64,000 nt of DNA from an uncultured Alphaproteobacteria bacterium. GTDB taxonomy: Bacteria > Pseudomonadota > Alphaproteobacteria > Rs-D84. The translations under genes and the position numbers were made by a program. Each line of letters begins with the position of its first letter. Position 1 is the first letter of the stretch. Below are positions 11,214 to 21,806 of the stretch, piece by piece. The DNA is taken from the NCBI GenBank assembly GCA_944389345.1, contig CALXMA010000004.1, forward strand, positions 14,374-78,373, written 5' to 3'. The notes beneath the pieces were generated by a model. The model made no database searches, was not told where the DNA came from, and worked only from the letters and a program-made list of their open reading frames with translations.

Positions 11214-11954
11214 TTATTTTACCAAGATACGGGCGTCATCGCGCATATCTATGATTTCCAGGTCTTTGGATAAAATTTGGTGGTTTTTATCCAATACAAT
11301 CAAACTGGCCATTGCGGTTTCAGGATTCTTTTCCGGCAACATTATCGTTATACCGCCCGTTGTATGAACGTTCCAACGTCTGTGTTCAATCCATTCAATA
11401 TAATCCAGGTCGTCAATAATCCCCATCGCCGCGTTAGTTATTTCCGATACATCTGGGGGTAATTCACCACGAAATACGACCGTGCCAGCCGTGCGTGTAT
11501 CAGATGGGCGATTGACGATTGTCCCGTCCGCAGACAGTGGGTAATACATTTCGCCATCTGTCCATTGGGCAACAGCCTGGTGTAATTGGACGCGTACAGA
11601 CAGGTTGCCGTTCGGCATTCTGCGTACAGATGAATTGCGCACACCCGGTGTGGCCATAATACGCTGGTTAATTTCGTCCAGGCGTGCCTGGTACGAATGT
11701 GTATTTGGGGCAATCGCAATCGCCGTCGCGATTTGGGTTAAATCCTTGTTCGGGGTGTCCGCAGACAATGATATTGTACGTATGTTGGCATTCGGACCAC
11801 GTCCGGTATATGTCAAAATAATACGTGTTGATAAATACACAGCCAAAACAATGGCTATGAAAAAATACAGCCAAAACCAGATAGAACGTTTCATGCGTTC
11901 AATTATATCATAAATTATTTTTGTTGGAAAGTGCGGGCGCAAATTAATTTGCAC
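11214..11954 (-). CDS. ftsQ: Cell division protein FtsQ (POTRA domain)
   Basis: 246 aa. It has an N-terminal TM helix (IWFWLYFFIAIVLAVYL) followed by a POTRA-like region, and it sits immediately upstream of ftsA. Confidence 0.75.
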   Translation of the reverse strand: MQINLRPHFPTKIIYDIIERMKRSIWFWLYFFIAIVLAVYLSTRIILTYTGRGPNANIRTISLSADTPNKDLTQIATAIAIAPNTHSYQARLDEINQRIMATPGVRNSSVRRMPNGNLSVRVQLHQAVAQWTDGEMYYPLSADGTIVNRPSDTRTAGTVVFRGELPPDVSEITNAAMGIIDDLDYIEWIEHRRWNVHTTGGITIMLPEKNPETAMASLIVLDKNHQILSKDLEIIDMRDDARILVK

Positions 11955-16137: not shown

Positions 16138-16848
16138 ATGAAAAAAGCAGGCAAGGCACCTGTGAAAAAGACAGGTAAAAAAGTTCAAGATTGTCCGATT
16201 AATTGTTGCAGTACCGCGCATAAGGTGTGGAGTGCTGTTGCATTGGCGGGGTTGTTTGCGTGCGGTTTGATTTTGGGGTTGACGTATAATCAAACAGATG
16301 CGGTTCAGGCAAAGATGGATGCACAACAGTGTGATGCAATCGCAAATGAAATTGTTAATATAACAACAAACGGCGCAACACCAGAAAATATCGATACGCT
16401 GAATGAATTAAATCAGGCGTATTTGGACGGATGTGCGGGACGGTTGGTCGTTATTGAAAAGCCTGTGGTGAAATCAATTGCGTCGCGCCCAGAAATTGTT
16501 TCTACGTGCGACAGAATTGAACAATTGTTGCAAAAACGTCTGTACCCAGAAGATAACCCAGAATACTGGAAACATTTGGCAAACGCCGATACGTACAGTA
16601 CTTTGGCCGACAGGGGGTGTGCGGAAAATTCAGAAATGTATAAAACGTTGGCGTTGCGGGAATTGGATATTGCAACGGCGTTGAAACCAACGGAATCTAT
16701 GGGAACGCGTGATGCAGAAATTGTTATCGATACGTTCAAGAAATTAGATATGCAACAAGAAGCACGTGAATTCTTGGGCAAAGTAGAAAAACTGATAGAT
16801 CCGGCAACCGATTTTATCTTGCAAATGGAACAGATTATCAATGAATAA
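16138..16848 (+). CDS. Membrane-anchored extracytoplasmic protein with two Cys-bracketed repeat units (unrecognised family); gene A of a 4-gene operon
   Basis: 236 aa. It has a Lys-rich N-terminus (MKKAGKAPVKKTGKK) and one TM helix (WSAVALAGLFACGLILGL). Two repeat units follow: C-DAIANEIV...YLDGCAGR and CDRIEQLLQKRLYPEDNPEYWKHLANADTYSTLADRGCAEN. Gene D is a paralogue. Confidence 0.6.
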   Translation: MKKAGKAPVKKTGKKVQDCPINCCSTAHKVWSAVALAGLFACGLILGLTYNQTDAVQAKMDAQQCDAIANEIVNITTNGATPENIDTLNELNQAYLDGCAGRLVVIEKPVVKSIASRPEIVSTCDRIEQLLQKRLYPEDNPEYWKHLANADTYSTLADRGCAENSEMYKTLALRELDIATALKPTESMGTRDAEIVIDTFKKLDMQQEAREFLGKVEKLIDPATDFILQMEQIINE

Positions 16849-17512
16849 AATAAAATTGAAATTTTTATGTGCCGTGTTGTCTTGTGTTGCGGTTGCGCCC
16901 GCAATGGCGGAAACCACAACGGAATTGCGCACGGACTGTACCGAAATACAATCGCGTATCAGTGAACTGGCCGCAATTACAGAACCAGATGATGCGACAA
17001 AATCTGAACTGGCACAATTACAGGCGGTGTATCGTCGGGATTGTTCAAAGCCCGCCGCAGGTCGCAGAACAATTGGGCGCGTGTCTATGGCGGCGTCGGC
17101 AACACCTGTGGCCGCAACCGCAACTGTGGACACAACCCCAGAAACTGTTGTTGTCACGGTCGCAAATTTGTTGGATGACTATTTGGACCAGCGTCGCGAT
17201 TTGTGTGCCGAATTGGCTGATGATATAGAAATGTTGGCCGATAATAATGCGTCTGATGCGGAATTAGAACCTTTGCAAAATCAGTACAAGGCAGATTGTG
17301 AAGACGTTGATCATTCAAAGACCGTGGATATAGACCCAGAAGTGGCCGCCGCAAATGTGGCACGGGGACTGTGCACAGATGGTTCAAAGCCCAATGAATA
17401 CGGTTGCTGTGATGGGGAACGGTTCACAGATATGGGAAATTTGGTGTTTGCGTGCTGTCCCGAAGATGGGGGCGAATGCTATCCACCTATTAATTCGGGG
17501 ACAAAATTATGA
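16841..17512 (+). CDS. Secreted Cys-rich protein: signal peptide + two Cys-bracketed helical repeats + C-terminal 6-Cys module ending YPPI; gene B
   Basis: 223 aa. The signal peptide is MNKIKLKFLCAVLSCVAVAPAMA|ETT. Two repeats are DCTEIQSRISELAAITEPDDATKSELAQLQAVYRRDC and LCAELADDIEMLADNNASDAELEPLQNQYKADC. The C-terminal module reads CTDGSKPNEYGCCDGERFTDMGNLVFACCPEDGGECYPPI. The gene overlaps gene A by 8 bp. Confidence 0.6.
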   Translation: MNKIKLKFLCAVLSCVAVAPAMAETTTELRTDCTEIQSRISELAAITEPDDATKSELAQLQAVYRRDCSKPAAGRRTIGRVSMAASATPVAATATVDTTPETVVVTVANLLDDYLDQRRDLCAELADDIEMLADNNASDAELEPLQNQYKADCEDVDHSKTVDIDPEVAAANVARGLCTDGSKPNEYGCCDGERFTDMGNLVFACCPEDGGECYPPINSGTKL

Positions 17513-17754
17513 AGAAAATCTATGTGGTTTTAATCGCAATTGCATTGTTTGTGTGTGGTGGAATTACCGGATATGTAATTGCCGTATGTGCCGGAAACAG
17601 TGCACATAGCGCCGATATAGATATTACGTGTATAGATGGCAGTATGCCCGATGAAAATGGTTGTTGCGCGGGCGAGGTTTATACCGATATGGGTGATTTA
17701 GGGTTTAATTGCTGTCCGCCGGGTGATGGGGATTGCTATCCACCAATCAGATAA
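17509..17754 (+). CDS. Small (81 aa) membrane-anchored/secreted Cys-rich protein carrying the same C-terminal 6-Cys module; gene C
   Basis: It has an N-terminal hydrophobic segment (MKKIYVVLIAIALFVCGGITGYVIAVCAG). It then carries CIDGSMPDENGCCAGEVYTDMGDLGFNCCPPGDGDCYPPI, which is co-linear with the C-terminus of gene B (C-x9-CC-x14-CC-x5-C-YPPI). The start overlaps the gene B stop (ATGA). Confidence 0.55.
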   Translation: MKKIYVVLIAIALFVCGGITGYVIAVCAGNSAHSADIDITCIDGSMPDENGCCAGEVYTDMGDLGFNCCPPGDGDCYPPIR

Positions 17755-17775
17755 GTTTTTATAGGAGGAGTCCAG

Positions 17776-18642
17776 ATGAGAGAGAAAGTAAAATCAGAAA
17801 AGGCAGTACGTGCACCACGTCGTCGCCGTGTGTGGCCGTGGGTGTTGGTTTTGTTAATTGTTGTATGTGGGTCTGGGGCCGTGATTCTGCATGAATTGGG
17901 GTATTTGAAATGGCGTGGAATAGATGCCGTAATAAATACCGTTATGCCGAATGACGAAAATATCAATATAGTGGCAACAGATGTTGCGGTTGCGCCCGTT
18001 GATACTGTCCAGGTCGCAGATGCGGAAAGTTCAGATATCGTTATTCGGCCCGCATGTGCCGTTATCGAAGACGCATTGTTGGCGCAAATCGTTGATGATG
18101 ATAACCCAGATTGGCAGGCACAATTTGATTCTTCGCGTGTGTATGCGACGTTGGCCCAGCGGGGATGTGCCCAAAATGCCAAGTTTTTCAGCGATATGTC
18201 TGTGCGTAAACAAACCATAGCCGAAGGATTGCGCGCGGTATATGACCAGGGCAGTGATGAAATGACGTCTGTTGAATATCTGTATTCAGATGAAAAAATA
18301 TGCCAGACAATCGAAAATCGTGTATTGCAAAATATAAACGTGAACGCGTATTCTTATGATGAATTCTTGCGCAATGCGAATACGTATTCTGTGTTGTATG
18401 AATATGGATGTCGCGATAATAAAATGGCGTATTCGCGGGCATCTATTCGTGAACTGGCAATCGCGTTGGCATTGGTGCCGGCAGACAAAATGACCCAAGA
18501 CGAAATCATAACGGTGATAGAGGTGTATAAACGTCTGGGCGCACCGACGTTGGCACATTTGGTTTTGCAACGCTTAAAGGCCCGCGGGTATGATATGGAT
18601 TTCTTGTTAAGCCTGGAAGATATCATTCATGGCATGCGATAG
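17776..18642 (+). CDS. Membrane-anchored extracytoplasmic protein with two Cys-bracketed repeat units (paralogue of gene A); gene D
   Basis: 288 aa. It has an Arg-rich N-terminus and a TM helix (RRRRVWPWVLVLLIVVCGSGAVIL). The two repeats are CAVIEDALLAQIVDDDNPDWQAQFDSSRVYATLAQRGCAQN and CQTIENRVLQNINVNAYSYDEFLRNANTYSVLYEYGCRDN. A GGAGGAG ribosome-binding site is present. Confidence 0.6.
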   Translation: MREKVKSEKAVRAPRRRRVWPWVLVLLIVVCGSGAVILHELGYLKWRGIDAVINTVMPNDENINIVATDVAVAPVDTVQVADAESSDIVIRPACAVIEDALLAQIVDDDNPDWQAQFDSSRVYATLAQRGCAQNAKFFSDMSVRKQTIAEGLRAVYDQGSDEMTSVEYLYSDEKICQTIENRVLQNINVNAYSYDEFLRNANTYSVLYEYGCRDNKMAYSRASIRELAIALALVPADKMTQDEIITVIEVYKRLGAPTLAHLVLQRLKARGYDMDFLLSLEDIIHGMR

Positions 18643-18657
18643 GTGTGTAATAAATAC

Positions 18658-18685
18658 TTGCGTTTGTCGAAAATTAGTATATAAT
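18658..18685 (+). promoter_or_regulatory. Sigma70-like promoter for tRNA-Gly
   Basis: TTGCGT (18658-18663), a 16-bp spacer, then TATAAT (18680-18685). The tRNA starts 20 bp downstream. Confidence 0.5.
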
Positions 18686-18704
18686 CACAGGGCTTTGATT
18701 TGTT

Positions 18705-18779
18705 GCGGGCATAGTACAAAGGCTAGTATGCAAGCCTTCCAAGCTTGAAATGCGGGTTCGATTCCCGCTGCCCGCACCA
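18705..18779 (+). tRNA. tRNA-Gly (anticodon TCC)
   Basis: GCGGGCATAGTACAAAGGCTAGTATGCAAGCCTTCCAAGCTTGAAATGCGGGTTCGATTCCCGCTGCCCGCACCA. The anticodon loop is CTTCCAA, the T-loop is the canonical TTCGATT, and CCA is encoded. Length is 75 nt. Confidence 0.85.
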
Positions 18780-18868
18780 GGAACAGGATAAGGTGCAGTT
18801 GAGTTGGGTAACCTTACGACGCAAACATCAACTCGTTGCTAATAACGCAACTCGTTGTGTTTTTATAC

Positions 18869-18893
18869 GCGCGGTTTCCCGCTGCCCGCACCA
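18869..18893 (+). repeat. Direct repeat of the 3' end of tRNA-Gly (truncated tRNA fragment), 114 bp downstream of the intact copy
   Basis: gcgcggTTTCCCGCTGCCCGCACCA at 18869-18893. Its 18-nt core TTCCCGCTGCCCGCACCA is identical to 18762-18779. This is the att-like duplication typical of integrase-mediated insertion at a tRNA 3' end. Confidence 0.7.
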
Positions 18894-18975
18894 AGGATTT
18901 TCACCGCAGCGAAGCAAGGGCTGAAAATCCATTGCCCACCGAAGCCGCTGGCGCAGGCGGGCGGAACACGAGATT

Positions 18976-19062
18976 GGGCGTGCGCCGGAGTTGGAGAGCC
19001 GGGGCAGACTGTAAATCTGTTGGCTTAAGCCTGAGGTGGTTCGAATCCACCCACTCCCACCA
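18976..19062 (+). tRNA. tRNA-Tyr (anticodon GTA), class II with long variable arm; possibly slightly aberrant
   Basis: GGGCGTGCGCCGGAGTTGGAGAGCCGGGGCAGACTGTAAATCTGTTGGCTTAAGCCTGAGGTGGTTCGAATCCACCCACTCCCACCA. The anticodon loop is CTGTAAA and the long variable arm is typical of Tyr. The T-loop is the canonical TTCGAAT and CCA is encoded. Two oddities are C rather than U at position 8 and a C4:U69 mismatch in the acceptor stem. Confidence 0.65.
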
Positions 19063-19305
19063 AAACACAAACCGACCGAATGGTCGGTTTTTGTTTTGTG
19101 ATGGGGTGGTGAGATGAGAACCACTGGTTCGACAATGAGTAGATTTGACAAGCACCGCGCGGTCAAATCGTTAGGAATGCCCCACAGCCGGCGTGATAAC
19201 GCCGTGCGAGGGAATCCACCCACTCCCACCAAAACACAAACCGACCGAATGGTCGGTTTTTGTTTTGTGATGGAGTGGTGAGATGAGAGCCACTGGTTTG
19301 CAATA
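19043..19305 (+). repeat. Two copies (19043-19136 and 19212-19305; ~94 bp, 3-4 mismatches) of a segment comprising the tRNA-Tyr 3' end + rho-independent terminator + ~45 bp; period 169 bp
   Basis: GAATCCACCCACTCCCACCAAAACACAAACCGACCGAATGGTCGGTTTTTGTTTTGTGATGG(G/A)GTGGTGAGATGAGA(A/G)CCACTGGTT occurs twice. The terminator hairpin is CCGACC-gaat-GGTCGG followed by TTTTT. The second copy lacks the 5' part of the tRNA, so it is an att-like scar or a tandem duplication. Confidence 0.7.
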
Positions 19306-19503
19306 TTTCAAACTAGTTTATTGTAAATACCCCAGTTTTGTAGTAAAATCCAGTAAAAGGATTATTTATGGCGTTATGACATTGGCGCGGGAAAAGGTGA
19401 GTGCTAAATCTGGTGCGTTGGTAAAGCAAAATTCAAATGAAATAGGGGACAGGTAATTGTAAATCCAATAAAACAATTACCACAGATTATAAAAACATCG
19501 CGT

Positions 19504-20038
19504 GTGGAGATGCGACAACTGGATGTGACACGTGAAAATGCAGAAATGATTTTTGATGCAATAAAAGATGAAAATTCATCTGATTTTTATTTTAATCCGA
19601 TTGGCGTTGATAATATTGTTCCAAAATCGGCCGATGAAGTATTGAAATTTATGCAACGTGAATCAGGTTGGACGGCGGATAATGGCGTCGCATTATACTT
19701 GTTTCAAAATAATAAATTTATTGGATATCGGCGGTTGTTTTTTTGATGGCGCGACGCGTACATTGCAAATGGCGACTGTATGGCTGATTCGTTCGGCGTG
19801 GGGACATGGGTTTGCGCGTGAAACGTCTGATGAAATAGAACGTATTGCGTTTGAAAAGTTGGGTGCCAATCGTATAACGCGACAATGTAGCAAGGATAAT
19901 GTGCGTTCAGCCAATTCAATAAAATCATCCGGATTTCATTTGGACGGTATCGCACGCCAAGGTGGTGTGTATCCAGATGGAAAATTATATGATAATATGA
20001 TGTGGTCTAAATTACGTTCGGAATATGTGACGAAATAG
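19504..20038 (+). pseudogene. GNAT-family N-acetyltransferase (RimJ/RimL-like) interrupted by a frameshift at a T7 homopolymer
   Basis: Two overlapping ORFs, 19504-19746 and 19658-20038, together reconstruct one GNAT fold. The upstream half ends ...LFQNNKFIGYRRLFF. The downstream half reads ...DGATRTLQMATVWLIRSAWGHGFARETSDE, which is the acetyl-CoA-binding motif region. The frames switch at GGTTGTTTTTTTGATGG around 19735-19746. Confidence 0.65.
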
Positions 20039-20144
20039 TTGTTTTTATGCGGGTTGTTGATGTGTGTAATGGTATACCCCCCCGTGGGGGATAAAATATC
20101 CGCACAGATTATTTATCTATGAATTTAACCGTGGGTAGGATTTT

Positions 20145-21752
20145 TTATTCTTCTATTTCCACGCTGTCGATGTATGTGCGGCCGACGGTTTCCAGGTTTA
20201 TTGGTTGAAAATCTGGCGATGTCATTACTGGGTCGCGATCGTCTTCGGGTAATATGATTATATTTTGTTCCTGGGTCGGTTGGGACGCCGGGGCGGTTAT
20301 ATGTGTGCCGTATGTTTCCGAACGGTATTTATCACGAAAACGCGCAGGAATATTTATATAATCGTCGGGGTTTATTCCCGGTGTTTCCAGTTCCATTGCG
20401 TCGGCTGGTTCTATTTTACGCTGTTCCAGGTTATAAATAGGGGTTAAGAAGTTTGTTGGCGCAGAACGTACAACCTGTGTCGTGCCGTCACCAGTTAATT
20501 GTACAATCTGTAATGCGCGTTCATTTTCGCCCGTGGGTTTTAATCTGTACAGACCAGATACGCCGGCATAACCACTGGGGTCCAGCAAGTATGATGCATC
20601 TGATTTTGTTGAATATATCATGCCCATTGCCATATTGGTGGCATCGTATCCAAATCCCGCCAGGTGGCCGGGGACTGTGCCAGACATCTGTTCGTACAGG
20701 TTAGAAAACGATGGTGATAGTTCCGGCAGTACCGCGTATTTTGCGCCCGCCATTGTGATGTCTGATACTATGTCAGATCCGTCCCATAATGCCGTTCCGT
20801 AAAAGCGTGCGTCGCGTGTATTCACGCCATAATAACGCAGGAACGATGCCAGGCTTTCTGTGTCGTCGCCGTTACCCAGAAACAGGACCGCGTCGTATGG
20901 TAAATCACCCAGTGTTTCCATTTTTGATAATCTGTCCAGTTGTACCGACAGAGATGATTTTTCAATCGCCCCCAGGTTTTCTTGGGTTAATATGTCGGAC
21001 AACACAGCACGTGCACGGTTATTTGCCTGGGTCCGGGCGTTGTTCATCGATGCGACATAGGTTGCGGATTTGATGGATTCTGAATCTGATTCCGTGTAAT
21101 AAAATATGCCAACAACAGGTATACCATACACGTCAGATGCACCAAGTGCGGTGCCCGCCATCAGACGGCCTGTTTCCGTGTCTGGGGCCAGGATAATAAA
21201 ATTCTGGATGCCATCAGATGACATTTCTTGGACGATTGTTTCAACGCTGTTTGTGGGCAACAGTGCCATTGACATTACGCCATCGCCAATCGCCGTTGCG
21301 TCCGATGTAAATGACAGTACCGGTAATGTTTCGGGTTTGGCATCGCGCAGGGTGCGGGCATCATTCGCAAAAACAGGGCCGATTATAACCTCAGGCTCGG
21401 TTATCAATACATTTGTCAATGTGGTTGGTAAATCAGATGCCGTGTCATAGAACGCAACCGACAGATTTCTTGGCGCGTTTTGTAATACCGCGATTTCCAC
21501 AGATGTTTGTATCGCGCGACCAACCGGCGCCAAATCACCAGACAAAGGCAACATAACGGCCATACGATGTACCGGCGCCCCCAGCAAATTATCTGATGGC
21601 GTTCCCGGTTGCATGTCAGGGGAACCGTATTGCATTTGTATCGGTGTTCCCGTTTGCAGTGTACCGTATTCTGTAAACCAACTGGTTTCGGGCTGGGATT
21701 CCACGCAACCCGCCAAAAATATCAATGTTAAAAATCCAAAAATCTTGTTCAT
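20145..21752 (-). CDS. lpoA: LpoA-like penicillin-binding-protein activator lipoprotein (LppC/YraM family; periplasmic-binding-protein-like fold)
   Basis: It is a lipoprotein with signal MNKIFGFLTLIFLAGC, and the start is moved to this Met. The arrangement is divergent from rsmI, as with yraL/yraM in E. coli. A Pro/Gln-rich linker is followed by a PBP type-1-like region (LAPVGRAIQTSVEIAVLQ). Confidence 0.6.
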   Translation of the reverse strand: MNKIFGFLTLIFLAGCVESQPETSWFTEYGTLQTGTPIQMQYGSPDMQPGTPSDNLLGAPVHRMAVMLPLSGDLAPVGRAIQTSVEIAVLQNAPRNLSVAFYDTASDLPTTLTNVLITEPEVIIGPVFANDARTLRDAKPETLPVLSFTSDATAIGDGVMSMALLPTNSVETIVQEMSSDGIQNFIILAPDTETGRLMAGTALGASDVYGIPVVGIFYYTESDSESIKSATYVASMNNARTQANNRARAVLSDILTQENLGAIEKSSLSVQLDRLSKMETLGDLPYDAVLFLGNGDDTESLASFLRYYGVNTRDARFYGTALWDGSDIVSDITMAGAKYAVLPELSPSFSNLYEQMSGTVPGHLAGFGYDATNMAMGMIYSTKSDASYLLDPSGYAGVSGLYRLKPTGENERALQIVQLTGDGTTQVVRSAPTNFLTPIYNLEQRKIEPADAMELETPGINPDDYINIPARFRDKYRSETYGTHITAPASQPTQEQNIIILPEDDRDPVMTSPDFQPINLETVGRTYIDSVEIEE

Positions 21753-21806
21753 ATACATTGAAAAATCCATTTTATTCTGTATCATTCTACTATAAAAGGA
21801 TTTGTA

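Follow-up and report, generated by a model that had tools for sequence, protein, structure and literature searches.

Why do two neighbouring tRNA genes of an uncultured Alphaproteobacteria bacterium each possess a second copy of their own 3′ end a short distance downstream? The question is raised by a stretch of 64,000 nts (contig CALXMA010000004.1 of assembly GCA_944389345.1, positions 14,374 to 78,373 of the forward strand; hereafter, the window), in which a tRNA-Gly and a tRNA-Tyr gene form one operon. The answer favoured here, with a rough probability of 0.55, is that the locus is an integrase-targeted tRNA 3′-end hotspot, which has accumulated non-autonomous structured modules. The host is a Candidatus Enterousia-like alphaproteobacterium whose genome measures ~1 Mb. 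When one genome per species was searched for exact matches to the tRNA-Tyr tail, 108 stretches were obtained, nearly all of them from 'Candidatus Enterousia' or other Alphaproteobacteria whose genomes derive from animal-gut and rumen metagenomes. These bacteria are members of the order Rs-D84, with genomes of ~0.75-1.0 Mb (PMC12306168). Compared loci are numbered with the prefix L. The tRNA genes, their tail copies and the terminators of the window are the following.

18705..18779, + strand: tRNA-Gly(tcc), first gene of the Gly-Tyr tRNA operon, called by ARAGORN (71 bits with the Rfam tRNA model, threshold 29 bits)
18876..18893, + strand: exact copy of the last 18 nts of tRNA-Gly (end of the T-loop to CCA), the distal attachment (att)-like core and the 3′ end of a module named E
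18976..19062, + strand: tRNA-Tyr(gta), 87 nts with a long variable arm, called by ARAGORN (38.5 bits with the same model)
19043..19062, + strand: T, the last 20 nts of tRNA-Tyr (T-loop G57 to CCA), the att core for integrase elements in relatives
19063..19098, + strand: tA, a two-way intrinsic terminator (hairpin 19069-19090, then a T-run)
19212..19231, + strand: second exact copy of T
19232..19267, + strand: second copy of tA (hairpin 19238-19259)

A reading made earlier from the sequence alone had reported that the 18-nt 3′ end of tRNA-Gly is repeated downstream, and this repeat proved exact and non-random: TTCCCGCTGCCCGCACCA is found at 18762 and 18876 and nowhere else in the window, while 0.14 occurrences are expected from shuffles and at least two matches were found in 0 of 100 shuffles. 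Similarly, GAATCCACCCACTCCCACCA occurs exactly twice, at 19043 and 19212, versus 0.01 expected. The sequence-only reading was right that a larger block is repeated behind tRNA-Tyr, but its length of ~94 nts has to be corrected to 87 nts, since the last 7 nts claimed are not homologous. The block (19043-19129 versus 19212-19298; 98% identity, 2 mismatches) is made of the last 20 nts of tRNA-Tyr, the terminator and 31 nts, and is repeated with a spacing of 169 nts and one 20-nt tail per unit. Both identity blocks begin in the T-loop, from G57 for tRNA-Tyr and from the last 2 nts of the loop for tRNA-Gly. Each intact tRNA gene is hence accompanied by a displaced copy of its own 3′ part in direct orientation.

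In the standard model (PMC4383910), an island restores the tRNA gene that it splits, and the displaced fragment marks its far end. The tail repeats of this lineage match that model, because elements carrying an integrase are bounded by such repeats in relatives. In L071, T and the terminator are followed by a gene for a 502-aa protein with a Phage_integrase domain (PF00589, 3e-13) and a DUF6538-like N-terminus, and then by one for a Rep-like protein; TAATCCACCCACTCCCACCA is found again 4.5 kb away as attR, where GGTGGT passes into AATCCACC at the junction. The same 19-20 nts thus bound an integrase-carrying 4.5-kb element, which agrees with the earlier view of the tail repeat as an att-type block. 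The same integrase lies at the same position, directly after T, in L089 and L115, the far boundary being outside the view. A search for integrase genes at the orthologous site had been proposed earlier, and one is present directly after tRNA-Tyr in L144 (far boundary again outside the view), where the order is FtsQ, LolCE, LolD, Cys proteins, tRNA-Gly, E, tRNA-Tyr, integrase, a DUF5906 primase-helicase-like gene and more.

This integrase, of ~500 aa, has more than 237 relatives, and its family uses other tRNAs as well. In L146, the integrase follows tRNA-Thr and an exact copy of the last 16 nts of the tRNA lies 9.3 kb away; in L150, it follows tRNA-Lys with an exact 16-nt tail copy 7.1 kb away. 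Bounded elements hence measure 4.5-9 kb, at tRNA-Tyr, tRNA-Thr and tRNA-Lys. Besides the integrase, the autonomous elements encode a P4-like primase-helicase (DUF5906 or DUF927) and a small protein matching REP_ORF2-G2P (PF23343). From these comparisons, the direct repeats of the last 16-20 nts of tRNAs in this lineage appear to be made by this integrase family, and the tRNA-Tyr 3′ end is evidently a target for site-specific insertion; the tRNA-Gly 3′ end is presumably one likewise. The first ~100 nts of the integrase elements (AAAACATTAGAAAACCGGCATT..., a hairpin, GGTTC; 9864-9990 in L144) recur at 6640-6760 in L131 (reoriented) after a tRNA-Leu tail copy, where no integrase but a large gene comes next; the L131 stretch is a true remnant of the left end of an integrase element.

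Occupied and alternative states of the site were found by comparing related genomes, among them ten contigs (L001-L010) which encode an identical 288-aa upstream neighbour protein. Although the flanking DNA of these strains is 97-100% identical, the content from tRNA-Tyr to the LppC-family gene differs, so that the earlier suggestion of a hotspot is borne out. Contigs contain 1-3 copies of T, and the cargo ranges over an AlbA_2 regulator with two small proteins, HxlR with a cupin, an AAA_14/DUF4143 ATPase, a lipoprotein or GNAT. The segment and boundary of the window come first in the list below, followed by the strain alleles.

19299..20144, + strand: GNAT segment with a frameshifted acetyltransferase (19504-20038), one of several alternative cargo segments
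20145..21758, − strand: LppC-family lipoprotein gene, the conserved distal boundary of the variable region
L001: one Tyr-tail copy; GNAT
L002: three Tyr-tail copies and a degenerate fourth; no genes
L003 and L005: three Tyr-tail copies; a 504-aa AlbA_2/Schlafen-type protein, two small proteins, HxlR with a cupin, and GNAT
L004: two exact Tyr-tail copies and a degenerate third; AAA_14/DUF4143 ATPase
L006: three Tyr-tail copies; HxlR with a cupin
L008: two Tyr-tail copies; a truncated second tRNA-Tyr and a lipoprotein

The GNAT segment is present in the window, L001, L003, L005 and L007, all of which share the junction with a truncated module at GGTT, and absent from L002, L004, L006 and L008. 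The GNAT gene of the window, previously described as a pseudogene, is indeed broken into two overlapping frames (19504-19746 and 19658-20038). Strain L003 is without the whole 191-nt insert of the Gly-Tyr spacer, which is reduced there to AGATT. The differing gene contents cannot be explained as assembly artefacts. Beyond the strains, at least one further T core lies downstream in each of 35 of 78 species genomes, at spacings that cluster at 167-201 and 234-268 nts (three are at 1.5-4.5 kb) and match the module sizes. Arrays of tail copies are thus shown to be common, and their content to turn over within species. In one sub-clade, the same terminator-plus-flank sequence ends the array (read by eye), as predicted if insertion occurs proximal to that last piece. 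A look-up based on RsmI gave two contigs only and was uninformative.

Several details of the strain loci were noted alongside. The second tRNA-Tyr of L008 (2229-2326) is 5′-truncated from about position 14 and lies 4 nts after the complete gene, the two tails being 78 nts apart. In L004, four tandem copies of a ~33-nt unit (AAAAAGTCCCTTGAAAAAGTGTAAAAAATATAC) lie at ~11710-11840, just 5′ of the ATPase gene. The AlbA_2/Schlafen-type protein (PF04326, with a Fic-like C-terminus; 11597-13111 in L005, 1643-3232 in L040 as reoriented) contains a short run of SDQV repeats, and homologues occupy the tRNA-Tyr site in two different species. Two 4-nt loops that are reverse complements of each other, GAAT and ATTC, alternate among otherwise identical copies of the terminator hairpin (window 19078-19081 and 19247-19250; L004 11463-11484; L003 14117-14138; L006 11629-11650; L008 2500-2521 and 3435-3456), which looks like small hairpin inversion or a template-switch polymorphism; further loops (e.g., GGAT, GATT and AGAT) occur in L002 and in species-representative loci.

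What, then, lies between the repeats? The sequence-only reading had suggested, as one of two options, that this DNA remained after elements were lost. This is not supported: the 96 nts that follow tRNA-Gly are a member of one conserved structured family, E, and the ~113 nts 3′ of the Tyr terminator of another, p. By sequence comparison and predicted folding, the inter-repeat DNA is not junk but two conserved, folded, gene-less module families, laid out in the window as follows.

18780..18875, + strand: module E with a variable 5′ lead, containing a long imperfect hairpin at ~18806-18882
18833-18853, + strand: apical core of E, TCGTTGCTAATAACGCAACTC, 21 nts, invariant
19099..19211, + strand: module p, type A, between the Tyr terminator and the second T, ending in GCGAGG
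19126-19133, + strand: p motif GGTTCGAC
19143-19149 with 19162-19168, + strand: helix P2 of p
19189-19194 with 19199-19204, + strand: helix P3 of p
19268..19298, + strand: truncated p, left part only, ending at GGTT where the GNAT segment begins

In 17 species genomes, the Gly-tail repeats are spaced by 114-115 nts with a homologous insert in all 17. At each of nine positions of the stem beside the apex, 26-31 of 31 E copies have a Watson-Crick pair, and most of these positions show 2-4 pair types. The folding z-score of E is −2.75, its opposite strand being the more stable one in 23 of 31 copies. E, whose apex was detected in 22 contigs of a metagenome scan, sits behind tRNA-Gly(tcc), tRNA-Leu(tag), tRNA-Gly(ccc) and tRNA-Glu(ctc), and after each of these tRNAs ends in a copy of the 3′ end of that same tRNA. 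For three tRNA-Gly variants, the tail copy mirrors the substitutions in the T-stem and acceptor stem of the local tRNA-Gly. The p family comprises 56 sequences (nhmmer), including those of 38 of 78 species genomes. Its helix P2 is 97% paired, with both sides changing in 6 of 7 pairs (71 cells, 6 of them G-U and none A-C); the observed score was attained by none of 500 shuffles, and pairing in slid controls does not exceed 45%. P3 forms a hairpin in 47 of 50 copies with 34 distinct sequences, and GTTCGAcaAtGAGTAG and CGTyAcG..TGCcccGCAG are conserved unpaired. The tRNA-sense strand of p is the more stable in 37 of 50 copies, so that the two modules favour opposite strands and the folding comparison is ambiguous. 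In L128, p lies behind tRNA-Gly(ccc) and ends in the tail of that tRNA, while in L006 and L104 units with genes have p as their right end. Units of a third type, C, open with an inverted copy of the Tyr tail (GGGAGTGGGTGGAT).

The E and p cores occur once each in the 64 kb, at this locus only. Elsewhere they adjoin tRNAs, with the sole exception of an E copy in L125, which has a T-loop-like end and no adjoining tRNA. Conservation of both modules extends to species in which LppC shares only 45-76% identity with that of the window. With Rfam 15 at gathering thresholds, the only matches were the four tRNAs, and E and p matched no family; permissive thresholds over 18600-19500 gave palindrome artefacts only (miRNA models on terminators), and the permuted tmRNA model reached 18.7 bits versus a threshold of 47. 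Three candidate features were discarded. A closing stem of p, TGGGG/CCCCA, came from single-sequence folding and has no covariation across variants. A tRNA-like fold of p or E, in which the 5′ end would pair with the tail, is by eye inconsistent across tRNA types: the pairing exists in some Gly(tcc) and Leu copies and neither in the lineage of the window nor in the Glu copy. Finally, a 55-aa basic open reading frame (ORF; 19114-19281, + strand; MRTTGSTMSRFDKHRAVKSLGMPHSRRDNAVRGNPP...), which runs through p, the tail copy and the terminator, was rejected as a gene since a stop codon in type-B units breaks the frame.

The spacer between the two tRNA genes also contains repeats within and beside E. 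The 10-mer CAACTCGTTG is doubled (18829 and 18848), while the 11-mer GCAACTCGTTG given previously is not; the inverted repeat GGATTTTCA/TGAAAATCC is present as described, at 18895-18903 and 18923-18931. The latter lies in the remaining part of the spacer, which is found only in some species (with variants in L089 and L115) and forms, with E, the insert missing from L003; across the survey, the Gly-Tyr spacer measures 5-229 nts.

18894..18975, + strand: spacer H, two hairpins 5′ of tRNA-Tyr, seen in the sequence (folding z-score −2.47)

The favoured mechanism would run as follows. Tyrosine integrases of ~500 aa would insert elements at the last 16-20 nts of tRNA genes. With each insertion, the tRNA would be rebuilt and its former 3′ part displaced to the distal end of the incoming element. 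Several such rounds, followed by deletions inside the elements and exchanges among the repeated pieces, would then generate strain-variable arrays of the form tRNA-[segment-tail copy]n. A recombinase provided in trans could move E and p, as non-autonomous elements or as the ends of elements, with their hairpins acting in cis. E may be tolerated within the operon as a short, terminator-less module that keeps tRNA-Tyr co-transcribed with tRNA-Gly, larger cargo perhaps gathering only 3′ of tRNA-Tyr, the last gene of the operon. The window has, after the Tyr terminator, one full p unit and one truncated unit followed by the GNAT segment; its extra 169-nt unit may stem from unequal exchange between copies.

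A number of observations weigh against this mechanism. No integrase was found in the window or in the ten strain variants, and a tblastn search of the window with the L089 integrase, of the L071-type family, gave only matches with E-values of at least 2. A viral-contig collection contained neither the Tyr or Gly tail nor the core of E or p. E and p were also considered as arm regions of the integrase elements, and were rejected as such: the attR-proximal arms of L071, L146 and L150 contain direct repeats of the AAAAGTGyyAAGCAAA type (by eye), which differ from both modules. No E-like core was found inside the integrase elements L071, L089 and L115. Given these arms and elements, we can only infer the link between modules and integrase. 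Furthermore, the covarying helices point to a folded single strand (RNA or DNA) and not to double-stranded arm sites. The duplicated block of L128 and L142 consists of the tRNA tail plus 36-95 nts of native flank, so that unequal exchange or template switching fits as well as integration there, and the difference in number of identical 169-nt units between the window and L001 could be an assembly artefact.

In a further variant, the modules themselves would recombine. According to this possible though doubtful proposal, E (~96 nts) and p (~113 nts) would be undescribed hairpin-structured, gene-less elements colonising the 3′ sides of tRNAs in Rs-D84, and the locus a tRNA-anchored integron-like array. 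Each cassette would have the form (gene)-folded site-tRNA-tail core, E and p always being followed by a copy of the host tRNA from T-loop to CCA, and recombination would proceed via the folded single strand with a recombinase encoded elsewhere. Since p also closes gene cassettes, the tRNA-Tyr array in particular would be integron-like. A weaker lead comes from the loop of E, CAACTCGTTGCTAATAAC, which matches 15 of 20 positions of the phiX174 origin nick region, CAACTTG-ATATTAATAAC, when checked against the real phiX174 sequence, a hint that an HUH-type nuclease of rolling-circle replication might nick there. In an annotated phage collection, E gave chance-level matches only (E-values of at least 0.8) and the Rep-like protein of L071 gave none. 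As no E-like core lies inside the integrase/Rep elements, a rolling-circle origin stays a lead.

Integration is not the only way in which a tRNA tail can be doubled, and the hotspot is not mutually exclusive with the two readings considered next. Local duplication without site-specific recombination, as proposed for the 178-bp repeats of E. coli tyrT, seems rather unlikely as the explanation of the locus. It would operate by unequal crossing-over or template switching between the tRNA T-loop and T-loop-like motifs downstream (GGTTCGA and GAATCC in p, GTTCGGATTC at the base of E), thereby doubling the stretch from T-loop to motif. Head-to-tail 169-nt units with 98% identity are what such a process would leave, and the block often exceeds the tail, by the terminator in L128 and ~95 nts in L142, and reaches 87 nts in the window. 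The truncated tRNA-Tyr directly after the first in L008, the flipped terminator loops (if read as template switching at hairpins) and the E copy of L125 with no tRNA nearby point the same way. However, the microhomology is only 6-10 nts, and duplication leaves unexplained both the gene-bearing segments and integrase elements bounded by the same blocks and the recurrence of E and p after different tRNAs in many species. Alternatively, E and p may be functional RNAs from the tRNA operon transcript, that is, 3′-trailer or spacer RNAs or tRNA-like processing signals, the tail copy making their 3′ end tRNA-like, so that the enzymes of tRNA maturation could act on it.

Covarying helices and conserved unpaired motifs would be expected of such RNAs, and E, lying between two tRNAs or 5′ of a terminator, should be co-transcribed. 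The strand preference of p and the presence of G-U but not A-C cells in P2 agree with an RNA, and the inverted T of type-C units could pair with the tail in a helix of ~11-14 bp with an ACCA overhang. Yet a generic tRNA-like end needs no locally matched tail, which points to a process at the DNA level; p lies 3′ of an intrinsic terminator with no promoter-like site found for it, and E folds better on the opposite strand. In addition, E and p match no Rfam family, RtT included, and their absence from many species and, for E, from strain L003 shows that they are dispensable. We hence consider an RNA function improbable as the account of the modules. The last alternative, that islands inserted and were then lost so that the 75-110 nts between repeats are neutral debris, can draw on the real remnant in L131, which keeps ~100 nts of an integrase element, and on the frameshifted GNAT gene. 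It is nevertheless already contradicted by the conservation and covariation of E and p, namely by their persistence across species with divergent LppC, by helices that stay paired through changes on both sides and by a 21-nt E core that is invariant behind four tRNAs, and is very improbable.

The tRNA-Tyr gene itself appears sound. C8 and the C4:U69 acceptor mismatch of tRNA-Tyr, from which its functionality had been questioned, are real in the alignment to the Rfam tRNA model, but they are constant in 106 loci, most of which were fetched by exact match to the last 20 nts so that this segment could not vary, and are hence fixed lineage traits. The five variants found in these loci (including GGCTTAAGCC, GTCTTACGAC and GTCTTATGAC) all differ in the variable arm, through compensatory changes that keep its pairing. 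ARAGORN, whose scoring had been proposed as a check, calls the gene as tRNA-Tyr(gta), and the covariance score lies above threshold. On this comparison, tRNA-Tyr is not defective, and the earlier doubt can be set aside.

Around the array, the window encodes LolCE, LolD and four small Cys-containing proteins, then LppC, RsmI, EngB and AddB. No island signal was detected in base composition, which is flat at ~45% G+C. The four consecutive Cys-protein genes (16138-18642, + strand; 236, 223, 81 and 288 aa) have no Pfam match and share recurring Cys-containing motifs, with CC..GE.YTDMG.L.F.CCP..G..CYPP in two of them, and correspond to what had been called a Cys-repeat operon; such genes adjoin the tRNAs in relatives too, and L144 has a 539-aa protein at the corresponding position. 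A likely operon promoter lies just 5′ of tRNA-Gly (18658-18685, + strand; TTGCGT, 16 nts, TATAAT) and was missed by a consensus scan, its first hexamer matching 3 of 6 positions. In one sub-clade (L013, L020, L025, L029, L033, L038, L039 and others; LppC ~45-47% identical to that of the window), LppC-RsmI lies upstream of the tRNA-Gly/Tyr genes on the same strand, whereas in the clade of the window it converges on them from downstream. These opposite placements indicate that the neighbourhood was inverted with the tRNAs still adjoining LppC.

That mobile DNA integrates into tRNA genes is textbook knowledge, and this part of the finding is already known. What is new is that the apparent leftovers between the tails are conserved base-paired modules, present in dozens of genome-reduced gut and rumen species and belonging to no described RNA family. 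With four tRNA species for E and two for p, the modules follow at least five in all. If mobile, the modules would be among the smallest site-specific elements known, and would show how a plastic cassette site at a tRNA gene is maintained in a genome of 1 Mb; as RNAs, they would represent a new family derived from tRNA trailers. In both cases, the defined cores, the natural occupied and empty alleles and the candidate integrase family provide a testable system.

How does the locus compare with known systems? The nearest framework is that of tRNA-gene genomic islands, as defined for Islander (PMC4383910). As in such islands and in prophages, an intact tRNA is followed by a displaced direct-repeat 3′ fragment, the block runs from a tRNA loop to CCA, the integrase of relatives adjoins the rebuilt tRNA and the site is polymorphic between strains. 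The differences are that no integrase lies between the repeats in the window or its strains, where 96-150-nt structured modules or small integrase-less gene sets are found, and that arrays hold up to three or four tail copies. The site hence corresponds to the structural definition of a tRNA integration site, apart from the integrase-less segments in this genome. Sublocation classes of tRNA-gene integration were reportedly described by Williams in 2002.

E. coli tyrT is said to carry a 178-bp unit repeated 3.14 times, each with 19 nts of the tRNA-Tyr 3′ end, reportedly from work by Egan and Landy in 1978, Rossi et al. in 1981 and Bosl and Kersten in 1991; a literature search on the tyrT repeats found no paper describing them. 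The rtT RNA of tyrT is Rfam family RF00391. The likeness is close in that ~170-nt head-to-tail units directly follow tRNA-Tyr, each with its last ~20 nts and with terminator signals next, and in that the small basic ORF at 19114-19281 runs through the unit, recalling the protamine-like tpr. Unlike tyrT, however, the units here are strain-variable and gene-bearing, and similar units follow other tRNAs; type-B units do not preserve the ORF, and no match to the RtT covariance model was obtained at gathering score or at E-values up to 10. Dispersed palindromic repeats (MITE-like or RPE-like) differ too, since the E and p cores are single-copy in the 64 kb and not scattered.

Integron cassette arrays and integrase-less attC clusters (CALINs) depend on the core consensus GTTRRRY/RYYYAAC and the IntI integrase. 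By eye, the consensus is matched neither by the base of E (GTATCC/GGATTC) nor by p (GTTCGAC), no IntI-like ORF lies in any strain locus and the conserved core is a tRNA 3′ end. Similar to integrons, however, a (gene)-structured site-short conserved core is repeated beside a fixed attachment point, and the site is conserved more in structure than in sequence. P4-like integrative satellites and plasmids combine an integrase with a primase-helicase at tRNA genes, as do the autonomous elements of the relatives with their integrase and DUF5906/DUF927 gene at tRNA 3′ ends, with the difference that these elements belong to relatives and not to the window and also encode a small PF23343-type (REP_ORF2-G2P) protein. 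Finally, the cis-mobilizable elements (CIMEs) of Streptococcus thermophilus are integrase-less and att-flanked, and lie in tandem with integrative and conjugative elements through site-specific accretion. The units described here are far shorter (down to ~114-169 nts), contain covarying hairpins and have ends unlike those of the known autonomous elements, but resemble CIMEs in being non-autonomous, bounded by att cores and arranged in tandem at a site that is also used by autonomous integrase elements.

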